From Cyanobacteriota bacterium (GTDB lineage Bacteria > Cyanobacteriota > Cyanobacteriia > Thermostichales > Thermostichaceae), in NCBI GenBank assembly GCA_033764955.1, contig JANRIL010000023.1, forward strand, positions 97,290 through 161,289: a DNA stretch of 64,000 nucleotides. The letters run 5' to 3'. The notes beneath the pieces are model-generated. The model did not search any database and was not told where the DNA came from. It saw only the letters and a program-made list of their open reading frames with translations. The first letter of the stretch is position 1; the number at the start of each line of letters is the position of its first letter. The position numbers were made by a program, and so were the translations under genes. Below, piece by piece: positions 7,353 to 49,772 of the stretch.

Positions 7353-7493
7353 ACCCATAAAACGGGATCCCTGTTGCAGAAACTTCAGAGCTATGACTAG
7401 AGAAAGGGGTGGATCCGCTTTCTGTCATTCAGTTCATCCGCAATATTAAACAATTATGATTTTTTAGAAAGTTGCTTAATCGTAGGTAGCCTC

Positions 7494-8045
7494 ATGAGTA
7501 TTTACCACTTAGTTCCTGATGCTAATAGGTATCAATCCTTAGTTGTAGGAAGTGGCAAGAGACTCAATGAAGTAAGTAAGTTTACTTTTGGAAATCCTGT
7601 ATTAGAAACTTGGAAGCCAGTACAAGTCAGACTTGCTACTGATCTTGACAAACCTCCCCTACCAGTTAGTGATTTTCCAGGATTGAGTGGAATGCCTGCT
7701 TTTACGGAGAAAGCAGTAAATGCTCTGGGAGAAATACTTAGAATCAATGGGGAGCTATTGCCATTAGAAAGTGATGATGGAATATTTTATCTCTACAATA
7801 CTACAACTATTATAGATGCTCTTGACGAAGGAAAGTCAGACTTATCAAGGAATCAAAATGGTTTAGTTCGTTTTATTAAAAAACATCACTTTGTTCCACA
7901 AAAGATTTCACAACTTACTATTTTTAGACCTATACAGCTTCCTGATTATAGCTATCCCTGTGTGACAGATCGATTTGTAGAGGTTGTCGAACAAGCTCAG
8001 CTAACAGGCTTTCTGTTTCGCAAGCTTTGGTCAAGTGATGAGTAG
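7494..8045 (+). CDS. Imm11/DUF1629-like immunity protein (Imm-1, no toxin upstream)
   Basis: Motifs DFP..PAF, GELLPL, YN.T..DALD and VTD.FV..LTGF.F..LW. Paralogous to the genes directly downstream of the AHH nucleases in this array. Confidence 0.75.
   Translation: MSIYHLVPDANRYQSLVVGSGKRLNEVSKFTFGNPVLETWKPVQVRLATDLDKPPLPVSDFPGLSGMPAFTEKAVNALGEILRINGELLPLESDDGIFYLYNTTTIIDALDEGKSDLSRNQNGLVRFIKKHHFVPQKISQLTIFRPIQLPDYSYPCVTDRFVEVVEQAQLTGFLFRKLWSSDE
8026..8045 (+). repeat. Conserved immunity-gene 3' junction TTTGGTCAAGTGATGAGTAG (also 9891-9910, 11542-11561, 15597-15616)
   Basis: Identical 20-mer in four places, each followed by [c/t]gag[t/c]tgc and then a toxin cassette. Confidence 0.9.
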
Positions 8046-9349
8046 CGAGTTGCTTATTCAGTCCGCCACCACCGCCGCCTCCCAGCCCAACTCCCACTCC
8101 GGATCCTTGCCATTCTGACCAAAGTAGACTTCACCTCTCTGAGGGCGAAAGCAAAACTAGTTCTGTTTCCCCACAAGCCTTTGCAACTGCTATTAACCAA
8201 TTCTTGGCTCTTGCCAATCCCAATGGCTGTATCCTCACGACTATTGAAGTTTTTGGCTTGGTAGGATACTCCACGGCTCAGTTGTTAGCCTTGGTTGAGG
8301 AGTATATGACACCTGAGCAACTAGCTGCTTTTGCCGCTGCTCTAGAAGAGATTTATAACCAACCCGATCCGTTACCTTCTCCCAGCCCGACTCCCACACC
8401 TACTCCGGATCCTCCCCCAACTCCGGATCCCACTCCCTCCGCTTGTCCTTCTCCCTCTCCTAGTCCTTCACCGGATCCCAAAGTTGACGATAAGATTCCT
8501 GTCAAGGTTGTGGTGCATGACTATCAACAATTTACGATGAAGCTTAATGATAATGGTCATCATACTTCTGATGGTGATTCCGTTACTATTACCGTTGAAC
8601 CTACTGGATATACTCTTAGTCCTGCTACAGGTGAGCAAGATTCTGTTAATTTATCGGCTCAAGATAAATCAAGTGTATTTGATCTCCAGTCAGTTGAGAA
8701 CAAAGTCACCATTGAGGGATTATCCGAGGGAGAATATCCGCCAGCTACCCTAGAATTTAAGATAGAAAAAGTAGAACTAGAACCGACTCCTGCTCCTGGA
8801 TCTAGTCAATCGGTTAGCCTTACTACGTTTGAAGGGAGTGTTTTATTGAGTGCTAACCAGAATATTACCTTTGAAGTGGAGTGTCGTCGTCCTCCGGCTA
8901 GAGGCAGCGACGATCCAGCTAAGCTAGCTAGAAATATGGAGAAAGGAGTACACATAAATTTATCTGGAAATGTGTTTTCAGAGCCATTTGGATATTATGG
9001 GCAAAGGATGCCATGTGGTACGACAGCTCATCATATAGTGCCGAAAGGAAACTTTAGCGGTAGTCCGGTGATGAGTGAAGCAGTACAAGCGTCTAGAGAG
9101 ATTCTGGCTCAGTTTGATATTCACATTAACAGTGCATCAAACGGAGTGGTTTTGCCACAGAATGATAGTATTCCAGTGCCAGGAACACCTCATAATCAAT
9201 CTCCAGGGCTTCATACGAACACTTATGTTCAGGAAGTTAGAAGGAGATTAGAAGCAGCAGCAAACAAATCAGGAGCAACAACATTATCAATACAGACTGA
9301 ATTAAATCAAATACGACAAGAGCTTATTGCAAAAACATTTCCCCATTGA
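8042..9349 (+). CDS. Orphan (headless) toxin cassette 1: Pro-rich linkers, beta-rich domain and AHH nuclease
   Basis: The frame opens after TGA at 8039-8041 with no ATG (VASCLFSPPPPPPPSPTPTPDPC...). C-terminal PCGTTAHHIV...DIHINSASNGVVLP..PH...LHTNTYVQEV is AHH-type. Confidence 0.8.
   Translation, partial: VASCLFSPPPPPPPSPTPTPDPCHSDQSRLHLSEGESKTSSVSPQAFATAINQFLALANPNGCILTTIEVFGLVGYSTAQLLALVEEYMTPEQLAAFAAALEEIYNQPDPLPSPSPTPTPTPDPPPTPDPTPSACPSPSPSPSPDPKVDDKIPVKVVVHDYQQFTMKLNDNGHHTSDGDSVTITVEPTGYTLSPATGEQDSVNLSAQDKSSVFDLQSVENKVTIEGLSEGEYPPATLEFKIEKVELEPTPAPGSSQSVSLTTFEGSVLLSANQNITFEVECRRPPARGSDDPAKLARNMEKGVHINLSGNVFSEPFGYYGQRMPCGTTAHHIVPKGNFSGSPVMSEAVQASREILAQFDIHINSASNGVVLPQNDSIPVPGTPHNQSPGLHTNTYVQEVRRRLEAAANKSGATTLSIQTELNQIRQELIAKTFPH
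8426..8500 (+). repeat. Cassette linker repeat, copy 1 (other copies at 9999-10036, 11649-11723, 15711-15785)
   Basis: The core gatccca[c/g]tccctccgcttgtccttctccctctcctag is in all four copies. The extension tccttcaccggatcccaaagttgacgataagattcct is in three. Confidence 0.95.
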
Positions 9350-9358
9350 GGCTGAAGC

Positions 9359-9910
9359 ATGAATATTTACCATTTAGTTCCTGATGCTAATAGGTATCAA
9401 TCCTTAGTCGTAGGGAGTGGAAAGAGACTCAGAGAAGTAAGTAAGTTTACCTTTGGAAATCCTGTATTAGAGATTTGGAAGCCAGTGCAAGTCAGACTTG
9501 CTACTGATCTTGACAAACCTCCCCTACCAATTAGTGATTTTCCAGGGTTGAGTGGAATGCCTGCTTTCACAGGGAAAGCAATCGAATCTTTAGGAGAAAT
9601 GCTTAGGATGAATGGGGAGCTATTGCCGTTAGAAAGTGATGATGGAATATTTTATCTCTACAACACTACAACTATTGTTGATACACTTGATGAAGACAAA
9701 TCAGACTTATTAAGGGATGAAAATGGTGGAATTCTTCATATTAAGAAACATTGCTTCATTCCTCAAAAGGTTGTAGAACTTACCATTTTTAAGACTGTGC
9801 AAATTCCTCATGATAGCTATCCCTGTGTGACGGATCAATTTGTTAATGCTGTTGAACAGGCTCAATTAACGGGATTTGTGTTCCGCAAGCTTTGGTCAAG
9901 TGATGAGTAG
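9359..9910 (+). CDS. Imm11/DUF1629-like immunity protein (Imm-2, likely cognate of toxin 1)
   Basis: Starts 9 nt after the toxin 1 stop. Close paralogue of 7494..8045 and 15065..15616. Confidence 0.8.
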   Translation: MNIYHLVPDANRYQSLVVGSGKRLREVSKFTFGNPVLEIWKPVQVRLATDLDKPPLPISDFPGLSGMPAFTGKAIESLGEMLRMNGELLPLESDDGIFYLYNTTTIVDTLDEDKSDLLRDENGGILHIKKHCFIPQKVVELTIFKTVQIPHDSYPCVTDQFVNAVEQAQLTGFVFRKLWSSDE

Positions 9911-9932
9911 TGAGTTGCAGGCAAATCAGTGA

Positions 9933-10886
9933 TTGTTCTTCATTGCCAGATCTAACTCACCCAGCCCAACTCCTACTTTCGATCCGACTCCTCCCCCAGA
10001 TCCCACTCCCTCCGCTTGTCCTTCTCCCTCTCCTAGCCCTGACCTAAAGGATCCTGTTCCGTTTGCCTTTAAGTCTGCCGAAAGAGTTGTCTTGAAAGAT
10101 GATATTTATTCCCTGAATATGAACTTTGAAGATAACGGATATCATCAAGATCAAGATCGCATCAAGATAACTATCGAATCTGCCGGATCTTTTAACCCTT
10201 CTACACCTGATATTGCAGCTCAACCTGCGCTTCCTCCTATCCATCTCACAGTCACTTTAGGAAATTCAGAGAAAATTGATTTGCCAGGATTTATCAATGA
10301 TGTCACAATCGAGGCGATGGATTTAGGGAGCTATTCTGATGCTGCTACCCTCAACCTTTTGTTTAATAATTATGACCCAACAGGAGGGAGTATTAGTAGT
10401 TATAGTCAGTTCGAGTCATTGAGTGCCAATCTGCCAATGCTAGAGCTGGGTCAAAAGTATCAATTTAATTTGGAATGCAGGAGATTATTTTATACTTCCA
10501 GCAGTAACTCTGACCAACTGGCAAGGGCATTAGAAGCTGTTTATGGGGATATGCCCTGTGGCACAAGACCTCATCATATTGTGGCTGCAACGGCAACAGC
10601 AGCGAAATTAGCCCAGGATATTCTGAGAGATTATAGTATTGGCATCAATAGTGCTGAGAATGGAGTGATGTTGCCTGCTAATAGTGAGGTAGCGAAGCGT
10701 GTGCCAGGTGCTATCCACAATGGTGGGCATAGTGGTGATTATTATAGATCTGTTAACAATCGACTGAGAATAGCTAGAGATCAAGCACTTAGCAGCAATA
10801 ACGATTACCAGCAGATTAGAGGGAAAATAATTGATGAACTAAGAGAAATTGCTAACGATCTAGTTGATGGAAGCCTACCATTGTAA
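9933..10886 (+). CDS. Orphan toxin cassette 2: Pro-rich linker, beta-rich domain and AHH-type nuclease (PHH variant)
   Basis: PTPSACPSPSPSPD linker; PCGTRPHHIV...GINSAENGVMLP..IHNGGHSGDYYRSV. Only a weak TTG start. Confidence 0.8.
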   Translation: MFFIARSNSPSPTPTFDPTPPPDPTPSACPSPSPSPDLKDPVPFAFKSAERVVLKDDIYSLNMNFEDNGYHQDQDRIKITIESAGSFNPSTPDIAAQPALPPIHLTVTLGNSEKIDLPGFINDVTIEAMDLGSYSDAATLNLLFNNYDPTGGSISSYSQFESLSANLPMLELGQKYQFNLECRRLFYTSSSNSDQLARALEAVYGDMPCGTRPHHIVAATATAAKLAQDILRDYSIGINSAENGVMLPANSEVAKRVPGAIHNGGHSGDYYRSVNNRLRIARDQALSSNNDYQQIRGKIIDELREIANDLVDGSLPL

Positions 10887-10922
10887 AACCAAATCTCTAA
10901 CAAAGACACAGAAGAGAAGCAA

Positions 10923-11561
10923 ATGAATATCTATATTCTTGACCAAGATGTAAATCCTTACAACTTGCTTAATCTTGAATCAAGTGATTCCAGAAGAATT
11001 ACTGCTAACAACAGAGAGAGAAAATGGCTCCATAAAAAGCCAATTAAGCATGAATGGATTCCTTGCAAAGCTTATTGGGTAACTGATGAAAAACCTAAAA
11101 AGTATCCTCTTTCAGACTTTCCCGGCTGTACAGCATTTCTAGCCTTCAGTCAGAAAGCAGTAAATGTATTAGAAGACCTGCTCATTCCAAGTGGTGAATT
11201 ATTACCCATCATTACCGAAGATGGAACCTATTACTGCTACAACGTAACTAACTTTGTGGATGCTCTGGATACAGAAAACTCTGAGTTTGATTATTACTAT
11301 ACTGCTGAGGAAGCTAAATTGCTAGCTCCTGGTTCTTATGGCTATTTAAGGACTAAGGGATTATTAACTGATCGTAGCCTTGGTCATATCATAAATTACA
11401 AGTTTCATCTTGATTTAGTCAAGAATCAAACTGTTTTCAGAATGAATTTATATCACTCAAAAGCTGGTTTGCTTTATGTGTCAGACATATTTGTTGAGCG
11501 GATCCAAGAGCATGGGTTGTTGGGGTTTGCTCCCAAGTTAGTTTGGTCAAGTGATGAGTAG
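10923..11561 (+). CDS. Imm11/DUF1629-like immunity protein (Imm-3, likely cognate of toxin 2)
   Basis: SDFPG..AFSQKA, GELLP, YNVT..DALD and VSD.FV motifs; ends WSSDE. Confidence 0.75.
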   Translation: MNIYILDQDVNPYNLLNLESSDSRRITANNRERKWLHKKPIKHEWIPCKAYWVTDEKPKKYPLSDFPGCTAFLAFSQKAVNVLEDLLIPSGELLPIITEDGTYYCYNVTNFVDALDTENSEFDYYYTAEEAKLLAPGSYGYLRTKGLLTDRSLGHIINYKFHLDLVKNQTVFRMNLYHSKAGLLYVSDIFVERIQEHGLLGFAPKLVWSSDE

Positions 11562-12512
11562 CGAGCTGCTTATTTCAGTTCGCCTCCTTCACGCAGTCTA
11601 ACTCCCACACCTACTCCGGATCCTCCCCCAACTCCGGATCCTCCCCCAGATCCCACTCCCTCCGCTTGTCCTTCTCCCTCTCCTAGTCCTTCACCGGATC
11701 CCAAAGTTGACGATAAGATTCCTCCCTCCAGCATTGTCATTAGTTCCAATGAATATTTGCTTGAAAATGAGTTGTGGGATAATGGACATTATCCTGATGA
11801 TGGAGACAGAGTTAGCATCACTGTTACACCTCTCCTGAATAAGCAAAATGGAGTCACTATCAACTCTCCATACCCACAAGTCGAAACTACCCAATCAAGC
11901 CAATTGCTTTGGGATCAGGGAACCGTAGCAAACCAGCCTCTTCAACTCAGAGCAGTTTTCAGTAAGATAAAGATTGAGGTAGCTTCTGAGGGGACTTATC
12001 CGCCTGCCACTATGGGTTTTCAACTGCTGAACAGTATTTCTCCATCCTCAGCTACTGTTTGGAGTAGTCTTCTTGGAAGTGACGGTCAAGCCAATCAATT
12101 TATAGAATTTGAGGTGGAATGTCGGATATCACCCACTAATCGCCTAGCCCAAAACATTCAACAAGGGAGCCATTTACCTGAAGCGCCTCCCCCAACCTTT
12201 CAACCATGTGATACTCAGACGCATCATATCGTAGAGCAAAATGATCTTTGTGCTCAGCAAGCACGAGATGTATTAGATAGCTATCAAATCAGCATTGATG
12301 ATGCAGTGAATGGAGTTTTCTTACCTGGGAGAAGAGAGTCCTATGCTCCTGGCCCATATCATCAAACTGTTCATACGGACAAATATATTGATACAGTAAA
12401 TGAACTCTTACAAATAGCAAAAACCAATAATAAACCAGTTAATGAAATAGTTCAAATCCTCAATGGATTAAGAGCTAGACTTCTGAACCATGATTCAACC
12501 CTATGGCTTTAG
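11562..12512 (+). CDS. Orphan toxin cassette 3: Pro-rich linker, beta-rich domain and AHH-type nuclease (THH variant)
   Basis: The frame is open from 11562 (RAAYFSSPPSRSLTPTPTPDPPPTPDPPPDPTPSACPSPSPSPSPDPKVDDKIP...). C-terminal PCDTQTHHIV...SIDDAVNGVFLP..YHQTVHTDKYI. Confidence 0.8.
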   Translation, partial: RAAYFSSPPSRSLTPTPTPDPPPTPDPPPDPTPSACPSPSPSPSPDPKVDDKIPPSSIVISSNEYLLENELWDNGHYPDDGDRVSITVTPLLNKQNGVTINSPYPQVETTQSSQLLWDQGTVANQPLQLRAVFSKIKIEVASEGTYPPATMGFQLLNSISPSSATVWSSLLGSDGQANQFIEFEVECRISPTNRLAQNIQQGSHLPEAPPPTFQPCDTQTHHIVEQNDLCAQQARDVLDSYQISIDDAVNGVFLPGRRESYAPGPYHQTVHTDKYIDTVNELLQIAKTNNKPVNEIVQILNGLRARLLNHDSTLWL

Positions 12513-12516
12513 GCTT

Positions 12517-13062
12517 ATGAACATATACCATCTTGATATTGATAATGAGGGCGTCATGTTTCATTTTACGGATCCCAAACAATCCAAGAAACTGCTGGAA
12601 AATGGATGGACGGAAGACAAATCAATTCAAGATACTTGGAATCCAGCCCATATTTCTATGTCAAAAAGACAAAGAGGTAAAATCCCAGGAGACCGTGCTA
12701 CTATTTATGGAACTATTCCAGTTTTTAGTGATTTAGCAGTTAAGGTTTTAGGCAGTTTCTTATTAGAGAGTGGAGAGCTTTTACCGCTGCAACCATGTTT
12801 TGGCACATATTTTGTTTATCACTTTACCTCGTCTTGTGATTGCCTAGATGAACGAAACTCTGAGTTTAGAACACTCCCTTCTGGATCACCAATAGAAATC
12901 ATAAAACATTCATTCTTCCCAAGTAAAATAGGTGATTTACAAGTTTTTAGGGTTCCTCATAAAAAATTTAAGATTTTCGTTCGCGATCAATTTGTCGAGT
13001 TAGTTCGCCAACACCATTTAACAGGATTTAAGTTTGATAAAGTTTGGTCATCCTCTTCTTAG
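12517..13062 (+). CDS. Imm11/DUF1629-like immunity protein (Imm-4, likely cognate of toxin 3)
   Basis: Starts MNIYHL like its paralogues (ATG 12517); PVFS, GELLPL, LDE..S and LTGFKF..VW motifs. Confidence 0.75.
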   Translation: MNIYHLDIDNEGVMFHFTDPKQSKKLLENGWTEDKSIQDTWNPAHISMSKRQRGKIPGDRATIYGTIPVFSDLAVKVLGSFLLESGELLPLQPCFGTYFVYHFTSSCDCLDERNSEFRTLPSGSPIEIIKHSFFPSKIGDLQVFRVPHKKFKIFVRDQFVELVRQHHLTGFKFDKVWSSSS

Positions 13063-13155
13063 ACACTCCAAAGCTCCTATCAGAGAAATGAAGAGTTAAA
13101 CAATATAAGAACAGGTTAAAATCAGATATATTTTCTCTTAATTAGGTCAAAGTGA

Positions 13156-13689
13156 ATGAATGTGTACGAACTTTATCCAGATGCCAATCAATTTCGGGGT
13201 TTCACTGTGGTAAAAACAGAGAACTTAAGTCTTGAGAGTTGCTTCTTTAGAGGAACCCCACTCCTAAATTCATGGCACTCACTTCATATAGAACCAGTCG
13301 AGCAGCATGTCATTGAAAGCAGGAAATTGAGTGACTTTCCTGCTTTTTTTTCAATGATCTGTCCTGTATTTAGTAAAGCATCTGTTGATGTTTTACAAGA
13401 TATTCTTTTAGAGAACGGAGAGGTACTACCTTTAATTTCCTCAATTGGCAATTATTTTGCTTATAATATCACTTGTATAGCTGATGTATTAGATGCTGAA
13501 AGTTCGATTATAAGAAATAAAAATATCGAAAAACATGTATTTCATTCTAATAAAATTAGATCATTGAAAATATTTAAGATTCCGCAAACTATTTTAGTTA
13601 GAGCTTATGTGACTGATGAATTTGTTGATCGAGTCAGTGTGGCTAAACTTACTGGATTCAAATTTAGATTTCTTTGGGCTGATTCATAA
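13156..13689 (+). CDS. Imm11/DUF1629-like immunity protein (Imm-5, orphan)
   Basis: MNVYELYPDAN; SDFP..PVFSKA; GEVLPL; YNIT..DVLD; VTDEFV..LTGFKF..LW. Confidence 0.75.
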   Translation: MNVYELYPDANQFRGFTVVKTENLSLESCFFRGTPLLNSWHSLHIEPVEQHVIESRKLSDFPAFFSMICPVFSKASVDVLQDILLENGEVLPLISSIGNYFAYNITCIADVLDAESSIIRNKNIEKHVFHSNKIRSLKIFKIPQTILVRAYVTDEFVDRVSVAKLTGFKFRFLWADS

Positions 13690-13808
13690 CTAATATTTCG
13701 ATTGCAATCCTTCCTCGAACCACGAGATCTTGGGATTCTCAAGCTAAATTGGAACGGCTATAACTATCGATCATTTATCAACAACTACCAATTTTTCGAG
13801 GTGCCTAA

Positions 13809-14942
13809 ATGTATAACTGGATGTCAAAGAAAATTGGACAGGCAAAGCAAATTGCTAGCAAATATGACATCGAATGGTCATTTGTTTTTGAGCCTCCGGC
13901 TAGTTTGGAGCAAATTAATGATCATGAACTTTCACTAGATATTGTATTTCCACCAAGTTATCGAGAGTTCTTAATGTTACATAATGGTATGACGTTGTTC
14001 CTATCAGAAAATTACTCAACAGCCATCAAGATATATGGACTTTCCGAGATAAAAAGATCTGAAAATCAATCAATCTTTGTTTTTTCTGACGACACTAATC
14101 GAGAATTTCACTCAGGATTTCATATTAGCAAGGAACACTATGAGAGTAAAATAGTGAAATGCTATTATGACTATCCGTATGAAGATTGGCCTTTCCTAGT
14201 TATTGCTAATTCATTTGATCAATGGTTAAAGAGAATATTTAATGCTGTTACCTTTTGGGAGATAGACCCTAAATACTGGTTAACAGCCTACCAATATTCG
14301 GGATGGAGTCAAGATAATATCCTCCGGGTCTCAAAAAATAGATTTCTCGAATATTTATCTGAATCTTCTCAAGAAAGTCAGATCATCAAAGATTTAGTTT
14401 GCCGTGGAAATCAGAAGAGACTGGAAAAAGATTTTCATAGCGCAATCGAATATTTTAATCGAGCAATAAACATTGATCCATTTAATTACTCTTATTTTTC
14501 TTCTCGTGGTTATCTGCTTTTTCAAGCTAATCAGATTGAAAAAGCTCTAAGTGATTATAATTATAGCATTAGTAATTACCCTATGCCTTCTGACTATAAA
14601 TATCGAGGGGTTATTCGTCATCAACTCGGTGACTTATGGGGTGCAGCACAGGATTTTACTTGTGCGATAGAGCATTATTGGACATGGACTAGTTATGACT
14701 TAGGAGATCCATCCATTATTGCTGATATTTATTGTTTGCGTGCTCAGGTGCTTGTCAAAGTGAATAGAGGGATAGGAGCAGTGGAAGATTTAAAAAATGC
14801 TGCTATTATTTACGATCACTGTCATAGAAGCTCTGAATATGAAGCTACTATTATCAAAATTAAGGAGATCCATCTGGATTGGGATGAAGCTGAGATTGCG
14901 GAAGTTGAAGATTGGCTTAAACACCAGTTGCAACGATTTTGA
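13809..14942 (+). CDS. SMI1/KNR4 (SUKH) immunity-family domain fused to TPR repeats
   Basis: N-terminal PPASLEQI..E..L.I.FPPSYREFL..HNG...IANSFDQWL is SUKH-like. C-terminal AIEYFNRAINIDP...RG..ALSDYN are TPRs. Confidence 0.7.
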   Translation: MYNWMSKKIGQAKQIASKYDIEWSFVFEPPASLEQINDHELSLDIVFPPSYREFLMLHNGMTLFLSENYSTAIKIYGLSEIKRSENQSIFVFSDDTNREFHSGFHISKEHYESKIVKCYYDYPYEDWPFLVIANSFDQWLKRIFNAVTFWEIDPKYWLTAYQYSGWSQDNILRVSKNRFLEYLSESSQESQIIKDLVCRGNQKRLEKDFHSAIEYFNRAINIDPFNYSYFSSRGYLLFQANQIEKALSDYNYSISNYPMPSDYKYRGVIRHQLGDLWGAAQDFTCAIEHYWTWTSYDLGDPSIIADIYCLRAQVLVKVNRGIGAVEDLKNAAIIYDHCHRSSEYEATIIKIKEIHLDWDEAEIAEVEDWLKHQLQRF

Positions 14943-14968
14943 GACAAGACTTTAGTCAGTCAACCAGC

Positions 14969-15055
14969 AGCAACAACATTATCAATACAGAATTAATACA
15001 GACTCAATTAAATCAAATACAACAAGAACTAATTGCAAAAACATTTCCGCATTAA
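14969..15055 (+). pseudogene. Remnant of a toxin-1-like 3' end
   Basis: Nearly matches 9274-9349 (agcaacaacattatcaatacag...aattaaatcaaatac.acaaga.ct.attgcaaaaacatttcc.cat), with an 11-nt insertion. Followed by a near-identical spacer (ggctg[a/g]agc) and an Imm start. Confidence 0.8.
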
Positions 15056-15064
15056 GGCTGGAGC

Positions 15065-15616
15065 ATGAATATTTATCATTTAGTTCCTGATGTAAACAGA
15101 TATCAATCCTTGATTGTAGGAAGTGGCAAGAGACTCAATGAAGTAAGTAAGTTTACTTTTGGAAATCCTGTATTAGAGATTTGGGAACCAGTACAAGTCA
15201 GACTTGCTACTGATCTTGACAAACCTCCCCTACCAATTAGTGATTTTCCAGGTTTAGGTGGAATGCCTGCTTTTACAGGAAAAGCAATCGAATCCTTAGA
15301 TGAAATGCTTAGGATGAATGGGGAGTTATTGCCATTAGAAAGTGATGATGGAGTATTTTATCTCTACAACACTACAACTATTGTTGATGCTCTTGATGAA
15401 GAAAAATCAGATCTCTTAAGAAATAAAAACGGTCAGATTCGTCATATTAGGAAACATCACTTCATTCCTCAAAAGGTTATAGAACTTATGATTTTTAAGA
15501 CTGTGCAAGCTCCTCGAACAAGTTATCCCTGTGTGACAGATCGATTTGTTAATGCTGTTGAACAGGCTCAATTAACGGGATTTGTGTTCCGCAAGCTTTG
15601 GTCAAGTGATGAGTAG
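15065..15616 (+). CDS. Imm11/DUF1629-like immunity protein (Imm-6)
   Basis: Close paralogue of Imm-1 and Imm-2 (same 183 aa length, same WSSDE end). Confidence 0.8.
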   Translation: MNIYHLVPDVNRYQSLIVGSGKRLNEVSKFTFGNPVLEIWEPVQVRLATDLDKPPLPISDFPGLGGMPAFTGKAIESLDEMLRMNGELLPLESDDGVFYLYNTTTIVDALDEEKSDLLRNKNGQIRHIRKHHFIPQKVIELMIFKTVQAPRTSYPCVTDRFVNAVEQAQLTGFVFRKLWSSDE

Positions 15617-15843
15617 TGAGTTGCTTATTCAGGCAAATCAGTGATTGTTCTTCATTGCCAGATCTAACTCACCCAGCCCAACTCCTACTTTCGATCCGAC
15701 TCCTCCCCCGGATCCCAGTCCCTCCGCTTGTCCTTCTCCCTCTCCTAGTCCTTCACCGGATCCCAAAGTTGACGATAAGATTCCTCCCTCCAGTATTGTC
15801 ATTAGCTCCAATGAATATTTGCTTGAAAATGAGTTGTGGGATA
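15617..15843 (+). pseudogene. Truncated chimeric toxin cassette 4
   Basis: The 5' part matches the cassette 2 leader and the 3' part matches cassette 3 up to ENELWD; similarity then stops abruptly at about 15843. Confidence 0.8.
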
Positions 15844-32880: not shown

Positions 32881-34245
32881 CTAAATGAGAATGTAGAAGT
32901 AGTTACTCGTACCAGAGACATTTTGGTAGGTGTAAGTAAGGCTAGCCCCATCGGTATCTGAGATGACTTCTTCAGGACTCATCGCTCTGGGTTGCCCATC
33001 TATCGAGAGAAACTGTGCAGGCTCTTGGCGAGCATCAATCATCAGGCGCATGGAGCCAAGCTGAGTCGCAACGACTTGATTCATGGCTACTCCCCCAATC
33101 AATTTGAATTTGACTTGCCGGACTTGAATCTGCCAGGGGTGAGCATCAGAAATAGCCCAGACAAACTCACCAATGGCATGAAGGTCATAGCGGAGACCAT
33201 CGAAGGTGTAGAGATGAGGATCCCCTGTGCTAGCGCCTGGAGTGCAGGTAGAGCAAGGAGGGGGTGGCGGTGGCGGGGATGGCGGTGGTGGAGGTGGCGG
33301 CGATGGATTAGGAGAGGGATCCGGTGAGGGATCCGGTGAGGGAGAAGGACAGGAGCCTTCTTCACAAGCGCAAAAGGGTTTCTCGGCGGGGTCACTGACA
33401 TCACAGGGATCCCTCATCTCGGCAGTTTTAGAATCACTGAGTTTGTCATCGGGAAAATCGGGTACGGTATACTCTGCCAAAACATTTACGGTCATTGTGC
33501 CTAGATTGACTGAGAGGGTAGCTTCTGTCTCAAATAAACCTTCCTCATCAGTTTCACCAGTGGTAGCAGCTAGCGTGCCATTTTGTGGTGTTAGGGTAAG
33601 TTTTATGGGAGGTTGTTTGCCATCTTTATCTAAGGCTGGCTGATTATCTCTATCCAATAATTTGACTTTTACCTTAAGATATACTGGCTCACCATCATTC
33701 ACAACTATCGGATATGAAAGGGGGTCAAGTTGCAACTCACAAGCGGGATCAACAGTAACTTCTTGCTGATCAAATCCTCGCTCAAGTAAGCCTAAAACAT
33801 CAGCAGGATGATAAGGTTCAGCAACAAGATATTGTTTGCCTGCTAATAAGGCACATTTAGGAAGTTTTAGTGTTTGTCCTGACTTTGAGATAGCAATTGA
33901 CGAAAAGCTATAGTTTTCATCTTGATCTGCTTTGCCATCCAGACCAATAGGGTGCCAGTTGATCAGGTAGTTATTACCAACGAAGTCGATAGGTATCGAA
34001 CCGACCTCTACTTGAAACAGAGGAATTTCTAAATAAGGAACGGGGATCTGAATTAGAGCACTAATAGATTCAGCTTTTTGCTGTAGATTAGACTGTTTTG
34101 CAGAGAGGGAGTAGTCTGTTGATGGAGAAACCAAGTTAGTTGAAGAGCCACAGGATGTTAATAATAGCAAAGAAGCAATAAATGATAGCTTTCTTAAAAA
34201 GCTAAGGATAAGGTCAAAAGTAAAGTTAAATGATAACTTCATCAA
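32881..34245 (-). pseudogene. Lipoprotein with Ig-like domain, Pro-rich linker and truncated VWD domain (premature stop)
   Basis: Lipobox LLLLTSC; TDEEGLF Ig-like motif; CPSPSPDPSPDP linker; GDPHLYTFDGLRYD..GEF VWD start. The TAG falls in YILI*PDGEQLQV, which looks like a mutated Trp codon. Confidence 0.7.
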
Positions 34246-34745
34246 TCAAGACCCATAATCAGTGGATAAGTGGGAGATATTTCAGAATCTTTGCGCAATA
34301 TCTGAGCTTCACTGATTTCTCCTGGAATAAAAGTCAACCTACACCATTGATCATATTCAGCATCAGCATCTATCGCCTCATCAACTGAATCCAAGACAGT
34401 ACCAAGCTCAAAAAGTAATCCATACTTCCCTTCAGAGATTAGAATGTGTACATCATTCCATAAGTCTGTAATTGTCAAAGACTGTGATTGCTCAATTTGA
34501 AAAGGGACTAAAATTCCACGCTTTGTCTCTGGCATCAAATTAGGTATTTTATTATCTCGATAAACTTTCACTTGCAAGTGATATCCTCCCTCAAAAATAC
34601 AAAATCCAAAACATTTGACTGACCAGAAAAAACCTTGGCGTATAGTTTCCTCATTCCACCCAATACTATTTCCATATGAAGCCCGCGACGTGTACAAGAC
34701 AATTGAATTATGGGTAGGCTGTAGAGAGAAATCTTGTATAAGCAT
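34242..34745 (-). CDS. Nin/ComJ-like nuclease inhibitor (immunity protein)
   Basis: W.EE.I.QGF.W, R.I.VPF.I, I..G.Y.L.FE and A.ILR.D motifs; lies directly after a NucA/NucB domain gene. Confidence 0.75.
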   Translation of the reverse strand: MLIQDFSLQPTHNSIVLYTSRASYGNSIGWNEETIRQGFFWSVKCFGFCIFEGGYHLQVKVYRDNKIPNLMPETKRGILVPFQIEQSQSLTITDLWNDVHILISEGKYGLLFELGTVLDSVDEAIDADAEYDQWCRLTFIPGEISEAQILRKDSEISPTYPLIMGLD

Positions 34746-34760
34746 AAAACAATTTAAAGC

Positions 34761-37223
34761 CTATGTAGGGTTTCCGAAAGCATCATAAATCACAAATCTT
34801 ACTTGAGTTCCATCAGGGTGAGTCGATTCAGGCATATATTTGCTAAAGTTAGAACCCGAACCCATATTATCAGATCCCTTAATACATTTTACATGTGCAT
34901 TCCCATTGTTTTCTAAGAACACAGCAGGAGGATATTCATCACGTTGTTGGCCTGAAGGACATTGTTGTATATTTAGTGGTGGTTTCTTTGCATTTCTGAG
35001 TGTTTTTACTCTTCGAGATGTTGAATTTTTTCTGTCAATTGTTAAAATGTCTGGTGTAGATCTTCTCTCTTTAACATGCTTAGCGCTCTCTGGATACTTT
35101 ACCTCAGAGAATCCCACATTAGGCAGTGTAGTTTGAGGAGTTGGACAAGAAGAGCTTCTTGTCGATAAATCTGTTGTCAAACATCCTAAACTAGCTTGAT
35201 TCCCTAAGGTCGCTCTCATCCCCACAAAAAACTCTACAGCATTGCTATCTTGAAAGCTTGCTGCTATCGGGATCTCTACAAAACTAGGATAAACAACTTC
35301 CTCCTCTGGTTGACTAATTTGCACATTCGCATTGGGGCTAAATATTGTCTCTGCTCTTCCATAAACCTTTCCTCCTATCCTCGGAAAACTAATCGGTGGA
35401 ACCGGAACCACAACAGGTGGAGTTGTGGGTACAGCCACTATCCCCCAAACGGTTGGATTGACTCCCAAGTTGATCCCTGCCTCAAACACCCCTGACAAAT
35501 CAAGCTGCCCTTCTTTGAGAGGGGAAAAACTCCCTTGACTATAGTTAGCACTAAACTTCCACTCCCCATTTTCATAGACAGCTTCTGGATTTAGACTAGC
35601 TCCACTATATCTCCACCCCAATCTGCCACTAGCAATCGCCTCCATCCCTGCAAACTCTTCTACTTTTACAGAAAAACGTAAGTTGACCCACACAGCAACA
35701 GGCCCAACAGTTCCAGCAATAGTAGTAAAGAAAAAGGGTATATCAGGACTATTGAGAAGTTGATCCACCTCTCCTAATCCATTCATTTGCAGATAGCTAT
35801 CAATCACTAAATCTTGATAACCAATACCTATCCTAAAATAGTCAACACCAAATTCATTGGTAGAAAATCTTAGTTCTGGCAGTCTAAAATCTGGGCAGAT
35901 CTGATAAGAATATCCCCAACTGGCAGCAAGGCTAAAGTTACTGTTGACCTCTCCTACAAAATCTTCCCACTGAAAAGGAATGGTAATAGCTTGATTTCCT
36001 GCTAAGGTCTCGATTGGATAGGTCTCTCCACCTGAGAAAAGTTGAGAACAAGTGGATAACTCTGATTTATTAACAACTTGAGGATTGACCGCAGTCTCTT
36101 GAAACTGAGTGGATCCCTTGATGATCACGTCGTTAGGCAAAGCTGGTTCTAATTGAAGTTGCAAAGTTTGATTGATTATTTGATAGGCCAAAACTCGCAT
36201 GGGTGGAATGGAGGCATTAGCTCCTACGATCACATCTCCTCGATAAATGGTGGGAAGTATTTTGTCTAATTTGAGGGTTAGTAAATTTTGCTCCCAATCT
36301 GTTGATTCAATCAGTTCCTCAGCTTGTTCCGGCAATACTTTGACATGGGGAGCAATCACCGCCTCCGGCGTAGACACCGTAAAACTCACCCTGGCTGAAG
36401 CCATCCCAGTCTGAGCTTTACTTTGGTTTTCCCCGATTTGCGCCGTCAGGGTTTCCATGACCACACTATTGGCTGGATAATCCAGAACGGCTCCTCTCCC
36501 CACCACCTGATTTTGAGCATTGCGCCACTCAATCCGCTGAGAAATATCCCTGCCCTCGCCATCGATAGCCACCGCTTCTAGCCTGAGCGTTTCGCCAATC
36601 GTGAGCGGGATCCCATCTTTGTCCTCCACACCAATAATTTGAATGGTTCCGGTGGGTGGTTCGCTTGCTTCTGCACTGGGTGTGACATCAGGACTAGGGA
36701 TCCCTGAGGGGAATGAGGATCCCGAACAAGGAATCGGGTTCAACAAAGCCACTGACAATCCAAATCGCCTCTCCACCTCCGTTTGCACCTGCACCTTAGA
36801 TGGACAAGGGAGATTGTTGGGAGGTTCTCGCAGCACCGCCACCGCAAAGGCCACGGCTGCATCCTGAGAATTAACCTGACCATTGCCATCCAAATCGGCG
36901 GCAGCCAACACAAAGCCATTGCTGCTATTGAGTTGTTGCTCATTCAAAGAAATACCAAACCGACTTTCCACCTCCGCCCGAATTTGGTCATTGGCAGGAT
37001 TCGCCACCGAGTTTGGAGGCTCTTTGAGCACCGCAATCCCAAAGGCAATGGCGGCATCCGTCGAGTCAAAAGTTGTGGGATCCCCTTCAAACCAAACTTG
37101 AGTGGAATCAGGAATACCTGGAGTGGTTAGGGTGCTGGGGGGGTCTGAGCCACAGGAAAGCAAACCCAACAGCAGGGATCCCATCAACAAATAGTGAGTA
37201 ATTGTGCGGAAAAGGGATCCCAT
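34761..37223 (-). CDS. Multidomain lipoprotein with a C-terminal NucA/NucB-family DNase (putative polymorphic toxin)
   Basis: Lipobox LLGLLSC (ATG 37223). C-terminal KYPESAKHV...LTIDR....RR...RDEYPPA....G.A.VK.I..SDN.GSG...DGT.VRF aligns by eye with Bacillus NucB motifs. Confidence 0.85.
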   Translation of the reverse strand: MGSLFRTITHYLLMGSLLLGLLSCGSDPPSTLTTPGIPDSTQVWFEGDPTTFDSTDAAIAFGIAVLKEPPNSVANPANDQIRAEVESRFGISLNEQQLNSSNGFVLAAADLDGNGQVNSQDAAVAFAVAVLREPPNNLPCPSKVQVQTEVERRFGLSVALLNPIPCSGSSFPSGIPSPDVTPSAEASEPPTGTIQIIGVEDKDGIPLTIGETLRLEAVAIDGEGRDISQRIEWRNAQNQVVGRGAVLDYPANSVVMETLTAQIGENQSKAQTGMASARVSFTVSTPEAVIAPHVKVLPEQAEELIESTDWEQNLLTLKLDKILPTIYRGDVIVGANASIPPMRVLAYQIINQTLQLQLEPALPNDVIIKGSTQFQETAVNPQVVNKSELSTCSQLFSGGETYPIETLAGNQAITIPFQWEDFVGEVNSNFSLAASWGYSYQICPDFRLPELRFSTNEFGVDYFRIGIGYQDLVIDSYLQMNGLGEVDQLLNSPDIPFFFTTIAGTVGPVAVWVNLRFSVKVEEFAGMEAIASGRLGWRYSGASLNPEAVYENGEWKFSANYSQGSFSPLKEGQLDLSGVFEAGINLGVNPTVWGIVAVPTTPPVVVPVPPISFPRIGGKVYGRAETIFSPNANVQISQPEEEVVYPSFVEIPIAASFQDSNAVEFFVGMRATLGNQASLGCLTTDLSTRSSSCPTPQTTLPNVGFSEVKYPESAKHVKERRSTPDILTIDRKNSTSRRVKTLRNAKKPPLNIQQCPSGQQRDEYPPAVFLENNGNAHVKCIKGSDNMGSGSNFSKYMPESTHPDGTQVRFVIYDAFGNPT

Positions 37224-37506
37224 TTTTAGAAAATGAGTTGAAGAAATTAGAGACTTTTCTGAACTGCCCACGAAGTATCAGACTCAAGTGTTCTTTGAAA
37301 AAAGACTGTGGTAATTCTTAATAAAGAGCAGAAGTCGAGGTATTCTTGAACACACTTCAAGGAACTTGGGGATCCCTTACGGCTGGAGTGGCAGAGGAAG
37401 CGATGGTTAAACAGAATCTCTCGTATTTAGAGATTAGTAGCCAAATTTACAGCTAGCCGATCTCTAAATCCGCTGGGATTAAGGCTGAACCTTAGCCACC
37501 CCAGAT

Positions 37507-44678: not shown

Positions 44679-45950
44679 ATGATGATTACTATCTTTTTCC
44701 CAGTTATTCGTCAAGTATTCGTGTTATTGATGGTTATTTCAATGTGTTGCTGTGCCATGGTACAGCCAGCACACGCAAATACCGTATCAGATCTCACAGA
44801 CCCCAGTCTTTATCTAGAAGCCACTCCGTTTCTAAAAGACGGAGAAACTCCACCCAATCTAGAATGGCTAAAATTGGCAGAAGAAATTAATAACGACTGG
44901 CTAGTACAGCCGATTGAAGAGAATCCGGCAACCTTGGTGATAGCACCTAAGCAGGGGGATCTATCAAAGGCAAAGCATATTCTTGTGCCGATGGGGCGTC
45001 GATCAAGTGCCTTTGGAACGGCGATAACTACTAGTCTCAATTTGTTTCGGAGTAAGGAATTATTTGTCGTATTAACTATTGTCAACTATAACAATATTCA
45101 GGAATACGGGAAAGCGTTGCTGGAGAAGTCTAAATCTGATCAAACTGATTTAATTATGCCTGTCGGTTCAATTGCCGCTGATTTTGTCATTACAGAATTT
45201 GCAGGGGAAACTTTGCCCGTTGTAACGAACACAGCTAAGGATCCAGTACTCATGAAGCAAATAGATAGTTATGATAGGGGCAGCGGAACCAACATTGCTT
45301 TTACAACATTTAGTATTCCCATCGAAACTCTCAAAACTTACTTACTTCAGTTAAAGCCAAACCTTAAGAATATTGGGATACTCTATGAGTCATTTAATGA
45401 AAGTACAGTTAAAACACAGGTGGAACCTTTAGTCGCAGAGGCTAATTTATCAGGGATCCAAACATTACTCTATGCAGTAGATGATGAGGACTTTTCCAAA
45501 GAGACTCTGATTAAACTAATTCCGCAAGCTCTACAAGATATGTCTTCTAGTGACCCTGCCTTAAGTAACAGTATCTTTTTTGTGACAGGCAGCGCATCTG
45601 TTTTTCAAGAAATTGAGACTATTACCAATCTCAGCAGAAACGTAGTGGTGGTGGCTACCTTACCTGATGTCGTCAAAGAAGGATCCAGCAGTGCTGATCT
45701 CTCCATTGGCGTCAATATTCAAAGCTCAGCTTATGTAGCAGCGCTTTATGTCGTAGATATTTTATCAGGACAAACTAAGCCCGGTGATCTGCCTGTAGGT
45801 TATGTTACTCCACCAGACGTTGCTATTAACTTCTTGAGAACTTACCAAAACCAGCTTAAAATTCCCTTTGACTTCTTCGAGCTAGCTAGTTTTATTTACG
45901 ATAAGACAGGCCAGCCAGTACGACTGTTTGGGCAAAACTTGATTGGCTAA
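44679..45950 (+). CDS. Periplasmic ABC-type substrate-binding protein
   Basis: Signal peptide ending AHA; IGILY; GV.....Y.A..YV.DIL.G..KPGDLPV..VTPP..AIN. No ABC permease or ATPase adjacent. Confidence 0.7.
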   Translation: MMITIFFPVIRQVFVLLMVISMCCCAMVQPAHANTVSDLTDPSLYLEATPFLKDGETPPNLEWLKLAEEINNDWLVQPIEENPATLVIAPKQGDLSKAKHILVPMGRRSSAFGTAITTSLNLFRSKELFVVLTIVNYNNIQEYGKALLEKSKSDQTDLIMPVGSIAADFVITEFAGETLPVVTNTAKDPVLMKQIDSYDRGSGTNIAFTTFSIPIETLKTYLLQLKPNLKNIGILYESFNESTVKTQVEPLVAEANLSGIQTLLYAVDDEDFSKETLIKLIPQALQDMSSSDPALSNSIFFVTGSASVFQEIETITNLSRNVVVVATLPDVVKEGSSSADLSIGVNIQSSAYVAALYVVDILSGQTKPGDLPVGYVTPPDVAINFLRTYQNQLKIPFDFFELASFIYDKTGQPVRLFGQNLIG

Positions 45951-48358
45951 CTAGGTGATTCTGATTTCTGGGATCCCTTGCGGAATTCTGACCAAAAGAG
46001 GATCCCAAATACAATACTGGCTAAGCCAACCCAACTTAGCGCAATAAAATCTTCCCTGTAGAAAAACAGTAATTGACCAATCAAAATTGGCCCCATAATT
46101 TGTCCAGCTCGCTCTAACAGGCGGTAGATGGATCCTGTAGTTGCTTGCCCTAAACGTTTAGCAACATCTGTTTCAGTAATATAGGTAAGGCTAGGTGCAT
46201 TAATTGAACCATGACCTATACCCAAGAGAGATACTCCACAGGCAAGTAAAATTACAGTAAGGATAGGAAAATTTTCCTGCCAAATGGTTGAAGCAGAAAC
46301 TAAACCCATCAAGAATAGTCCAATACCACTAGCAACGCAGCCAAATACAAGCACAAACCTGATATTACCAATTCGGTCAACATATCGGCTAGTAGCTGCA
46401 CTCGAAAGTAAAACTCCTGCGGCATAAAACATCATAATTTGACCAATATCCTCTTGCCCAAATTGTTGCCTCGACAGGAGAAGTGGCAAAGCAAAGACTG
46501 TAACTCCAGTAAAAACAGCTCTATATGGTAAGCCAATTAAAAAAATTGTCTTGATAAATTTCAGGTCACGAAATACAGAAGTCAGACTTTGTAATAGAGA
46601 AGACGTGTTTTGCGGAATAGAAGAAACTGCACCATCTTGCTGATTCAAGTCAGTAACAGTTTGGGTAGTAGCTGCTCCCGGTAGGATCTGAGGGATTAAG
46701 CCTTGCAAGTAAATTAATGCAGACAAGCCAACCACGGCACCTACCAAAAATACTCCCTGAATACCTAAATAAATAGAAAGTAAAGCACCTATTGCCACAC
46801 TAGAAAGGCGTGCTGCAAAGAAGTCAAAGACCATCAGGTCATTACCTTGCGTTTTCCTCTGCGGCGAAACAACTTCTAAGATATAGGACTGAACTGCTAC
46901 TGTTAGTATTCCTTGCCCAGCTCCCGCTAATGCTCTAATCAAATACATAGCCCAGAAGTTTTGAACACCTGCCATTGCTAAAGCTACCAAACCTGTTAAT
47001 AGTCCAGACCAGAGCAAAACGGGTTTGCATCCATAACGATTAACCCAACTGGTAGCGGGTAGCATTGCTAGTGCCCATCCCAAAAAATAAGTTGTAAATA
47101 ATGTAGGAACAAGATGTATATCTACCTGAGAGGCATCAGCGATCCCATTCAGATACTGTGGCAGGAAAGATATACTTAACCCATCCACAAATGAAAGAAT
47201 AAAGTAATACGGCTCAATCAATTTCATCTGAAAAACTTCATACTCAATTGTATTTACATCCGGTTTGCGAGTAAATAGTTTGAGCAAATTAAGAAACATG
47301 GTGGACAGAAAAGCAGAAGCAATAAATAGTGATAGGAAATTTTTAACGCTTCGCCACAGTCGCCTGTAAAGAATATCCTTTGGTGTCTTTACAACCATAC
47401 CGTACTCAGGTGTTTCAGGATTTTGGGAAGGTAAAGCCACCTCATATTCAAAAAATCCACCTACCTGTTGTGATTCCTCCCCCCTTGCCCCCGCTTCATA
47501 AAGGGTTTGATTGCTAGAACGTACGGCAATATAACTAATCTCAGGGTTAAAGTCTTGATAACTTTCTAGAGTTTCAGTGATCCCAGTTAGATCCTCAAAA
47601 TCTAAGTTGAGTTGAATGGGAGCATTCAAACGGCTGCCTAGCGATAGCATAAGGCCTTGGGTCTTTCCCTGAATCCCACCACTATAAAGGAATGTCAAAG
47701 CTAACATGACAGCAGCGGCAAGGATCAAATAAGTAAAACTAAAACTAAAGTCTAGCCACTTAGCGTTATACTGACCGATAGACAAATAAATGCGTATTGC
47801 CAAAGCGAAGAAGACGGCGATTAGGGCAACTCCCACAACCCAGACAAATCTAAAACTTTCATTAATATCGTCGGTGACAGCTTGCTTCGTTAAAGTAACC
47901 AATATGTCACCTACCTGCTCAAATTTGTTTTTAAGAGGCAGCTTGACCCTATAATCTGTCTTATTTTCTTCCAGCATATAAATATCTTGCTTGCCAATAC
48001 TGGGAGTAGGTATATAGTTAGTGTCATTTCTAGAGAATCCTTGGCGATTAAGATTAAAAGTTTCTTGTCCATTCACATTAACAACTTGTACTTGCTGAAT
48101 ATCTAAATCCGTATCAAGGATAGATTGTGACAAGCTGGCAAAGCCTGAAAACTGTTCTAGTGGCAAGCCTGCATTCAGGTAAGTTTGCAGAGAGTTTTGC
48201 ATAATCTGGCCTTGAGCAACTACTCTGTCAACTAGAAATTGCGGGTGATTTTTATAAGCGTCTCCAATACCCACTAACATTACTGTTGTAAAGCTAATGA
48301 CTAAAATAACTACTGCGATAGCAGTATTGATCAAGGCGGTTTTTCGATTGCTACGCAT
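45947..48358 (-). CDS. MFS transporter with a ~370-aa N-terminal membrane/periplasmic extension
   Basis: C-terminal 12-TM MFS-like region (RYGCKPVL, IRALAGAGQG, YVDRIG, ER.G...GP). The N-terminus has two TM-loop-TM modules. Confidence 0.75.
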   Translation of the reverse strand: MRSNRKTALINTAIAVVILVISFTTVMLVGIGDAYKNHPQFLVDRVVAQGQIMQNSLQTYLNAGLPLEQFSGFASLSQSILDTDLDIQQVQVVNVNGQETFNLNRQGFSRNDTNYIPTPSIGKQDIYMLEENKTDYRVKLPLKNKFEQVGDILVTLTKQAVTDDINESFRFVWVVGVALIAVFFALAIRIYLSIGQYNAKWLDFSFSFTYLILAAAVMLALTFLYSGGIQGKTQGLMLSLGSRLNAPIQLNLDFEDLTGITETLESYQDFNPEISYIAVRSSNQTLYEAGARGEESQQVGGFFEYEVALPSQNPETPEYGMVVKTPKDILYRRLWRSVKNFLSLFIASAFLSTMFLNLLKLFTRKPDVNTIEYEVFQMKLIEPYYFILSFVDGLSISFLPQYLNGIADASQVDIHLVPTLFTTYFLGWALAMLPATSWVNRYGCKPVLLWSGLLTGLVALAMAGVQNFWAMYLIRALAGAGQGILTVAVQSYILEVVSPQRKTQGNDLMVFDFFAARLSSVAIGALLSIYLGIQGVFLVGAVVGLSALIYLQGLIPQILPGAATTQTVTDLNQQDGAVSSIPQNTSSLLQSLTSVFRDLKFIKTIFLIGLPYRAVFTGVTVFALPLLLSRQQFGQEDIGQIMMFYAAGVLLSSAATSRYVDRIGNIRFVLVFGCVASGIGLFLMGLVSASTIWQENFPILTVILLACGVSLLGIGHGSINAPSLTYITETDVAKRLGQATTGSIYRLLERAGQIMGPILIGQLLFFYREDFIALSWVGLASIVFGILFWSEFRKGSQKSESPS

Positions 48359-48867
48359 GGATTGCTACCTATCATTAATTGAGACTATTCACCGATTCAG
48401 ATTTAATATATTATGGCTCAACTATGCTGAGTTTCCTATTTGTTTCCGTGAAATCATAAAATGTATAAATATGGTGTGACTAATGCTAATCTCTGTGTGG
48501 ATGCAATCGGATTAGCAATGAATTGAATAAGGGTTATCTTTAGCTCCAGCATAGTAGCCTTTGGTTTTGATACTACTTCCTAAATTTATCCACTCAACTT
48601 CTTCCTCTCAATCCTGAGCTATGATTTCTTTCTTACAGACCTCGACGAATATCAATACTACAGTTTTTTAGGCAAATGAGATCTGCCTAAGCTAAAGTGG
48701 TAGGCGTCTTAGCTTCAACCTGCACCCTGCCAAAATAAAAAGCTCCTCCCTGAAGTGACCTTCTCATCAGAAAAAATTATTAAGGATCTTGACTATCCTA
48801 CCTCATAAAGATTTAGGCTATAAATGTACCTGTATAAAATGTAAGGTAGTTTGCCCTGGTTTTCACC

Positions 48868-49755: not shown

Positions 49756-49772
49756 AGTTGAGACCAAAGATT

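Follow-up and report, generated by a model that had tools for sequence, protein, structure and literature searches.

We analysed a 64,000-nt stretch of cyanobacterial DNA (hereafter the window) and, within it, an array at positions 7494-15843 whose features all lie on the forward strand. The array contains three headless cassettes, each with an immunoglobulin-like (Ig-like) domain followed by a nuclease domain of the AHH family, together with six Imm11 genes and one gene that combines SUKH and TPR domains (Table 1). A first-pass annotation, made from the sequence alone, had described AHH, PHH and THH variants of the nuclease tip, each followed by an Imm11 gene, and indeed all three tips pass the Pfam cut-off for AHH and each is followed by such a gene. 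The SUKH-TPR gene that it named was likewise recovered, and the region is AT-richer than its surroundings, as had been noted, with a GC content of 0.395 compared with 0.545 and 0.551 in the left and right flanks. The three further Imm11 paralogues that it listed (7494, 13156 and 15065) are present too, but only five of the six Imm11 genes score above the Pfam cut-off; the one at 13156 falls below it and is 25-40% identical to the remaining Imm genes of the array. Cassette 1 turned out to be longer than had been said: it is a single open frame of 435 aa that starts inside an earlier Pro-rich linker and runs through the tail of that linker (Pro linker 1), a helical domain, a second, Cys/Pro linker (linker 2), the Ig-like domain and the AHH nuclease. 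A frameshift considered near position 8200 was rejected, since the frame is open there. An Ig-like domain of ~130 aa precedes the nuclease in every tip of the window.

Table 1. Features of the array, of the head gene on contig C4 and of the second toxin locus in the window
Feature	Position	Strand	Evidence or remark
Upstream element	7360..7492	+	blastn; leads directly into the Imm11 gene at 7494
Imm11 gene, type 1 allele a	7494..8045	+	Pfam PF07791 E 3e-7; 74-81% to other type 1 alleles
Headless cassette 1	8063..9349	+	AHH E 9.5e-14; its tip and that of the C4 head are alleles
38-bp linker core, copy 1	8426..8463	+	Core search
Imm11 gene, type 1 allele b	9359..9910	+	Pfam E 2.6e-8
Headless cassette 2: linker (core 9999-10036, in frame), Ig-like domain, PHH-type AHH nuclease	9933..10886	+	AHH E 2.5e-12
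Imm11 gene, type 2	10923..11561	+	Pfam E 2.1e-8
Headless cassette 3: linker (core 11649-11686), Ig-like domain, THH-type AHH nuclease	11565..12512	+	AHH E 5.4e-13
Imm11 gene, type 3	12517..13062	+	Pfam E 1.8e-10
Orphan Imm11-like gene, without tip and without close C4 copy	13156..13689	+	Pfam E 0.01, below cut-off
Right-hand fragment of ~100-bp dispersed repeat	13724..13763	+	9 other places in the genome
SUKH (SMI1/KNR4) + TPR gene, orphan immunity candidate	13809..14942	+	PF09346 E 4.5e-11; TPR_1 E 1.5e-12
Remnant, 3' end of a third tip-1 allele	14962..15055	+	Aligns with 9267-9349
Imm11 gene, type 1 allele c	15065..15616	+	Pfam E 5.2e-9
Chimeric junction (core 15711-15748)	15597..15843	+	Pairwise alignments, repeat families
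Head gene (head A)	C4:64451-62610	-	614 aa; AHH E 6.9e-13; linker core in frame
Head B locus: lipoprotein head B + NucA/NucB tip (34761-37271)	32881-37271	-
ComJ-like gene, head B locus	34242-34745	-
Shortened VWD-type lipoprotein, head B locus	32881-34245	-

A blastn search of the genome with the array region led to a paralogous locus on contig C4, to which the array is 87.9% identical along 5052 bp. This locus has a full-length gene that carries the linker preceding the tips, the head gene, head A. Its product starts with a short signal and the lipobox LAAC at residues 16-19, a pattern read from the sequence, and continues with a Cys-rich domain, Pro linker 1, the helical domain, Cys/Pro linker 2, the Ig-like domain and the AHH nuclease; we predict head A to be a lipoprotein. 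Apart from AHH and Pro-rich noise it has no match in Pfam or NCBIfam, and no homologue of its Cys-rich domain was found among proteins of 337-1075 aa. Judged from its sequence, the frame upstream of the head gene looks like a PadR-type regulator. The head gene is followed by an Imm11 gene and then by three orphan tip/Imm11 cassettes, the last of which begins at the nuclease, without linker and Ig-like domain. The window array corresponds to this C4 series from linker 1 onward, minus the signal and the Cys-rich domain, in agreement with its description as headless, and cassette 1 is 91% identical to head residues 183-614. The lack of any full-length gene with the linker, named beforehand as refuting the proposal of a reservoir of orphan cassettes, was not observed, and the proposal is supported, but the window array is a second, headless copy and not the head's own locus. 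The ~130-bp upstream element of the window is 93% identical to the DNA preceding the C4 head gene (blastn) and 92% identical to C44:209-332, which comprises the 3' end of a gene and an intergenic stretch; a promoter scan, itself at chance level (23 vs 21.7), listed no promoter-like site in it. The residues HH, N, H, H and Y of the Tox-AHH motif, given with [AG] at the first position in the part of PMC3482391 that treats it, are kept in all three window tips, the first position being A, P or T, and C4 cassette 2 has HY at this motif.

The near-identical repeat that had been seen before the tips is a 38-bp linker core. The window has four copies (0-1 mismatches) and C4 has three; at up to 5 mismatches, these seven are all the copies in the 3.8-Mb genome, none lying outside the two toxin loci, even in other Pro-rich genes. 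The core begins every full cassette in the reading frame of the head, and it is in frame 0 in all seven reading frames tested. The tips that follow it are just 46-52% identical to each other at the nucleotide level. All tips of the window array belong to one nuclease family, and since their nuclease domains are only 35-40% and their Ig-like domains 25-41% identical, simple duplication in tandem does not account for the array. Between the window and C4 loci the linker cores are 95-100% identical, compared with 78-93% for the flanking genes.

Traces of recombination are found at several joints. At the end of the array, 15597-15752 corresponds to the leader of cassette 2 (98%), whereas 15695-15843 corresponds to cassette 3 from its start (96%), and the two parts meet within the linker core; the junction ends after a few codons of the Ig-like domain and represents a stub of cassette 3, with the fourth linker copy. 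This junction is direct sequence evidence of the linker as a past crossover site, which supports the suggestion that the Cys/Pro linker is the exchange handle, but other joints exist too, as one C4 cassette begins at the nuclease and the 3' ends of Imm genes are also shared. At the other end of the array, the first Imm gene and a run of Pro codons (7493-8107) match the C4 type 1 Imm gene and spacer, and the sequence from 8063 onward matches the head from linker 1. Judged from the alignments, the junctions are products of past recombination, although the arrival of a new tip on the head was not observed. Furthermore, Ig-like domain 3 is 99% identical between the window and C4 and lies between neighbours at 83-91%, which is what a recent exchange would give.

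One might argue that the linker is simply Pro-rich DNA of low complexity, prone to slippage and duplication, and that unequal crossing-over built the array with no exchange function under selection. The lipoproteins of this family often have Pro/Ser/Thr linkers, and PDP codons contain GGATCC, which is the core of the palindrome GGGATCCC, present in 4915 copies in the genome; GGATCC itself occurs 3.1 times per kb and is present in the linkers. However, the absence of the core from the genome's other Pro-rich genes, the divergence of the tips behind it, which are no tandem duplicates, and the finding that unrelated handles of 45-327 bp have the same part at other loci make this explanation very improbable. 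The palindrome is listed as the HIP1 variant of Yellowstone Synechococcus in a section of PMC5861425; we draw no conclusion on a role of it in crossover at the linker, because the motif is so common and the 38-bp core does not contain the full octamer.

Comparison of the window with the C4 locus gave ratios of nonsynonymous to synonymous substitution rates (dN/dS) of 0.08-0.32 for the tip segments, with bootstrap intervals below 1 in six of seven, and the headless tips lie at 0.18-0.32; the seventh segment, Ig-like domain 3, is too similar to be informative. Ten pairs of Imm genes gave values of 0.13-0.28. The synonymous divergence (dS) between the two loci is 0.2-0.8, which would fit a foreign origin of the array, and it could be thought that the array is a toxin locus of another strain that lost its head and was kept for its six Imm11 genes and the SUKH gene, the tips being passengers that do not return to a head. 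The three type 1 Imm alleles, the two immunity genes without tips, the position of an Imm gene directly behind the head's upstream element and the stub that forms the last cassette speak for such a capture, and Imm11 is known to form homogeneous polyimmunity loci, as described in passages of PMC3482391. On the other hand, all three tips are open and keep the catalytic motif despite this divergence between the loci, and both the linker cores and Ig-like domain 3 are more similar between the loci than the genes around them. We consider a captured immunity array unlikely as the whole explanation, although it is in part compatible with the one preferred below.

We also examined the tips and their Imm11 partners by structure prediction. 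An AlphaFold2 model of a tip, based on a 13-row alignment, has a predicted local distance difference test score (pLDDT) of 85.9 and shows a beta-sandwich and then the nuclease; single-sequence folding (pLDDT 33.7) was discarded. A Foldseek search with the model returned no match at E <= 0.001, and VIA-align, whose search barely covered the nuclease part, found generic beta-sandwich/Ig-like matches only (best Z 6.3, root-mean-square deviation 2.4, 77 aligned). An Atlas search with the Ig-like domain gave no usable match. Two cysteines that are invariant in 13 of 13 aligned tips flank a variable loop before the nuclease and might form a disulfide-held release loop. The complex of C4 tip 1 with its Imm11 was modelled with a score of 0.92, compared with 0.37 for the best of three controls; of 78 solved complexes, 51 attain the mark used, and of 108 mismatched pairs, 2 do so. 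The runs agree in at least 98% of contacts, with a partner pLDDT of at least 91. Sites that vary between alleles are enriched in the predicted interface, both in Imm11 (21/37 vs 44/146, p 0.004, four type 1 alleles) and in tip 1 (9/31 vs 12/123, p 0.015, two alleles).

The module of Ig-like domain plus AHH nuclease is rare and was found in three of 23 family genomes by domain search and in a fourth (G003) by homologue search; one carrier genome is a Thermostichus metagenome-assembled genome, which places the family. In a sample of the phylum, two of 401 genomes match at 1e-8, and in the second of them the match is confined to the nuclease part. The homologue search gave matches for 32 of 41, most of which are Pro-rich noise. 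A genome scan with the tip alignment returned four loci, all previously identified, a genome scan with query P0025 found nothing, and a metagenome scan gave six loci with 24-residue matches only. Three metagenomic proteins with the module have N-terminal hydrophobic leaders and no obvious lipobox.

In relatives, the module rides on two other lipoprotein heads, B and C. Of 30 genomes of the order to which Thermostichus belongs, 13 have head B, at 31 places in all. This genome has it twice, with different tips, in the window and on contig C47, where the locus also includes a VWD lipoprotein and an orphan cassette in which 327 bp of head sequence are repeated at 95%. Clustering of the last 110 residues of 19 of the 31 head-B proteins, one of which runs to a contig end, gave 17 tip classes; five long proteins without an evident toxin end, two cut by contig ends, two split genes and three not fetched were left out. 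Four of the five long proteins end in leucine-rich repeat (LRR)-like repeats, and the long forms show that head B also occurs outside toxins. Six of the 19 tips match Pfam, several below cut-off (NucA/NucB twice, AHH, DUF6310, deaminase and nucleotidyltransferase), and 13 have no match. An Atlas search with head B gave only leads under 0.9. Head C occurs in six of 30 genomes, with four tip classes in five proteins, EndoU among them; an apparent likeness between a domain of head C and the helical domain of head A was not significant. Two tip classes are common to different head families. Self-comparison revealed a downstream repeat of head sequence at five of 33 loci, one of them being a different Cys/Pro linker of 78 bp. 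The genes downstream of the tips include SUKH, Imm11, ComJ-like, DUF4279, DUF5953 and DUF6086 genes, the last three and ComJ being what we take to be immunity families. VWD lipoproteins follow many head-B loci but neither head-A locus, and this speaks against a requirement for them in the head-A toxin.

Some further observations concern these heads. The head B locus of the window resembles the other one of this genome (L052:8266-16487), the first 1080 bp being 92% identical, and its VWD-type lipoprotein is shorter than the 896-aa copy on C47. In genomes of the genus Thermostichus, L114:7228-12297, L119, L120 and L121 encode lipoproteins of 1680-1960 aa with head B, VWD and LRR but no toxin tip (checked with Pfam for L114 only), which are candidates for a receptor or an ancestral adhesin. 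At L130:6192-7189 a head-C gene in two frames is accompanied by a small tip and a DUF4288 gene in G001, a single-contig 3.0-Mb genome; a finished genome thus carries a trace of the system.

As some head-B proteins carry CBM_2 domains, one tip type is NucA/NucB and no delivery system was found, these proteins could also be surface nucleases that scavenge or process extracellular DNA in the mat rather than weapons. We give this view little credence, since cytoplasmic immunity genes follow each tip, since the tips include deaminase, nucleotidyltransferase-like, EndoU and DUF6310 types, and since allele variation appears to concentrate at the tip-Imm interface of the model.

Our preferred explanation, which we consider likely, is that a polymorphic toxin system with a lipoprotein carrier has in the array a second locus, one without a head; toxicity, export and the exchange of tips onto head A are inferred. 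Under this explanation, head A would be anchored by lipid in the envelope and reach neighbouring cells by contact or vesicles. The nuclease would then be released, possibly by cleavage in the variable loop between the two invariant cysteines at the border of the Ig-like domain and the nuclease, and in the producer cell Imm11 would bind and block it. Homologous recombination through the linker would put a new tip on the head, the partners lying within one locus, in the window and C4 loci, or on incoming DNA. In the meantime, expressed immunity would be the most likely function of the window locus, since the place where the head gene would start is taken by an Imm gene.

Several points weigh against this explanation. 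The lipobox is a pattern match and not the outcome of a predictor. Homologue searches found head A in one copy only, and hence the same head A with a different tip was never seen. The core, at 38 bp (~75-150 bp with flanks), is short for RecA. Purifying selection may date from full-length genes in a donor strain and not from the present silent state. The complex model, which was made for the C4 pair, may have passed because it resembles solved pairs, and it does not rank the members of the family; the interface enrichment was computed without control for surface exposure. Finally, the genome assembly comprises 48 contigs (3.8 Mb) and is 89% complete, and the marker searches in it identified no delivery machine: VipB, PAAR and RHS_repeat were not found although their controls were detected, and neither was the PA14 (TraA-type) family, for which the control was detected in two of 14 and TraA/TraB were not used as queries. 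The single OmpA match lies in a 264-aa frame, with no long OmpA protein found, and the search for ShlB is uninformative, as no control was detected. Delivery by contact transfer or vesicles is accordingly a guess.

A wider reading, which we offer only tentatively and regard as doubtful, is that the Thermostichales possess lipoprotein kin-discrimination weapons of their own, with at least three unrelated heads on a shared tip pool, reloaded from cassette stores in cis and in trans by recombination through Cys/Pro linkers, and with an entry independent of TraAB and of a type VI secretion system (T6SS), perhaps by way of vesicles or an exchange of envelope, the receptor being the neighbouring VWD lipoprotein. 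If true, such an entry would mean that polymorphic toxins have a new mode of delivery, in a lineage of mat-forming phototrophs. A non-homologous set in this order, comparable to the TraAB-dependent lipoprotein toxins characterised in myxobacteria, would imply either a second way of lipoprotein transfer or an unrecognised exchange system. The set also offers a concrete candidate for antagonism between strains in cyanobacterial mats, the 13 head-B tips without Pfam match would make the family a source of unassigned toxin and immunity domains, and through the chimeric junction the exchange handle can be put to a direct test.

Direct repeats were seen around the toxin loci. A 29-bp repeat (93%) flanks the head island at C4:57661-57689 and 64585-64613, around the common genome palindrome, each copy adjoining a linker remnant. 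This sequence is also found at the start of the window island (7365) and in the 3' end of a gene at C44:214. Direct repeats also flank toxin loci in G017 (L023, 127 bp, 96%) and G011 (L129, 67 bp, 93%), and such flanking repeats resemble the outcome of circle integration. The ~100-bp dispersed repeat, of which a fragment lies in the array, has short inverted ends and is possibly a miniature inverted-repeat transposable element. Elsewhere in the window, there is a second low-GC block at 44679-53280 (0.38-0.43) whose genes, judged by inspection of their sequences, would encode an ABC-type binding protein, an MFS fusion, a homocitrate-synthase-like and a TauD-like protein, and what reads as a fragment of an IS630-like transposase lies at 62807-63400, near the contig end.

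VENN, Rhs and Hint sequences are the handles of cassettes in contact-dependent inhibition (CDI), Rhs and MafB-type systems. As in these systems, one full-length gene is followed here by headless tip and immunity cassettes that start with a repeat of the head sequence, and the GC content is low, in accordance with the general scheme of orphan C-terminal cassette arrays outlined in parts of PMC3482391; in contrast, the carrier here is a predicted lipoprotein, the handle is a Cys/Pro linker, and there is a second, wholly headless locus. The first-pass annotation had seen no Rhs or MafB motif, and Pfam finds none in the C4 head either. Unlike Rhs/T6SS effectors, head A lacks RHS repeats and PAAR according to Pfam, and no sheath gene was found in the 89%-complete genome; unlike CDI toxins, its 614 aa include no filamentous haemagglutinin or VENN/PT domain (Pfam); and unlike MafB, it has no DUF1020/MAFB-N match (Pfam) and stands behind the PadR-like frame. 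Lineage-specific N-terminal domains (MAFB-N, Microscilla-N and Amoebophilus APD1/2 with a lipobox) are described, and predicted to be more widespread, in passages of PMC3482391. A Sec signal, with a lipobox in APD1/2, an N-terminal domain confined to a lineage and polymorphic C-termini are shared with such toxins, but the lineage and domains are others, and APD effectors are host-directed and not cassette-swapped, whereas immunity genes and orphan cassettes are present here.

The SitA toxins of myxobacteria are lipoproteins whose escort domains are of six non-homologous kinds and whose nucleases are modular (PMC8546572, in part); they are delivered by TraAB outer membrane exchange (PMC5562445, PMC8546572, both in part), and have orthologues reported, in the consulted portion of PMC5562445, in traAB species only; SitAI5 includes ahh-imm11 loci, according to a passage of PMC12077181. 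The likeness comprises a lipobox followed by a low-complexity region, N-terminal families of several non-homologous kinds, nucleases as modular C-termini, and the pairing of AHH with a downstream Imm11 plus extra Imm11 genes. The differences are that a PA14 domain and a long OmpA protein were not found in the 89%-complete genome, that the heads, as compared by domain libraries, are unrecognised by Pfam/NCBIfam, and that tandem orphan cassettes with a recombination handle occur here, the Ig-like domain travelling with the nuclease. No description of the present system was found in the open-licence literature, although the supplements of PMC3482391, outside this scope, could list cyanobacterial AHH architectures. 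Since AHH/Imm11 lipoprotein toxins are known from myxobacteria (SitA5), the new polymorphic toxin class proposed in the first-pass annotation has to be narrowed: the array, with its head gene identified, is a polymorphic toxin cassette array that resembles the CDI/Rhs/MafB orphan arrays in its working and SitA in its build, was not shown to belong to CDI, Rhs, MafB or SitA and is a new lineage-specific variant.

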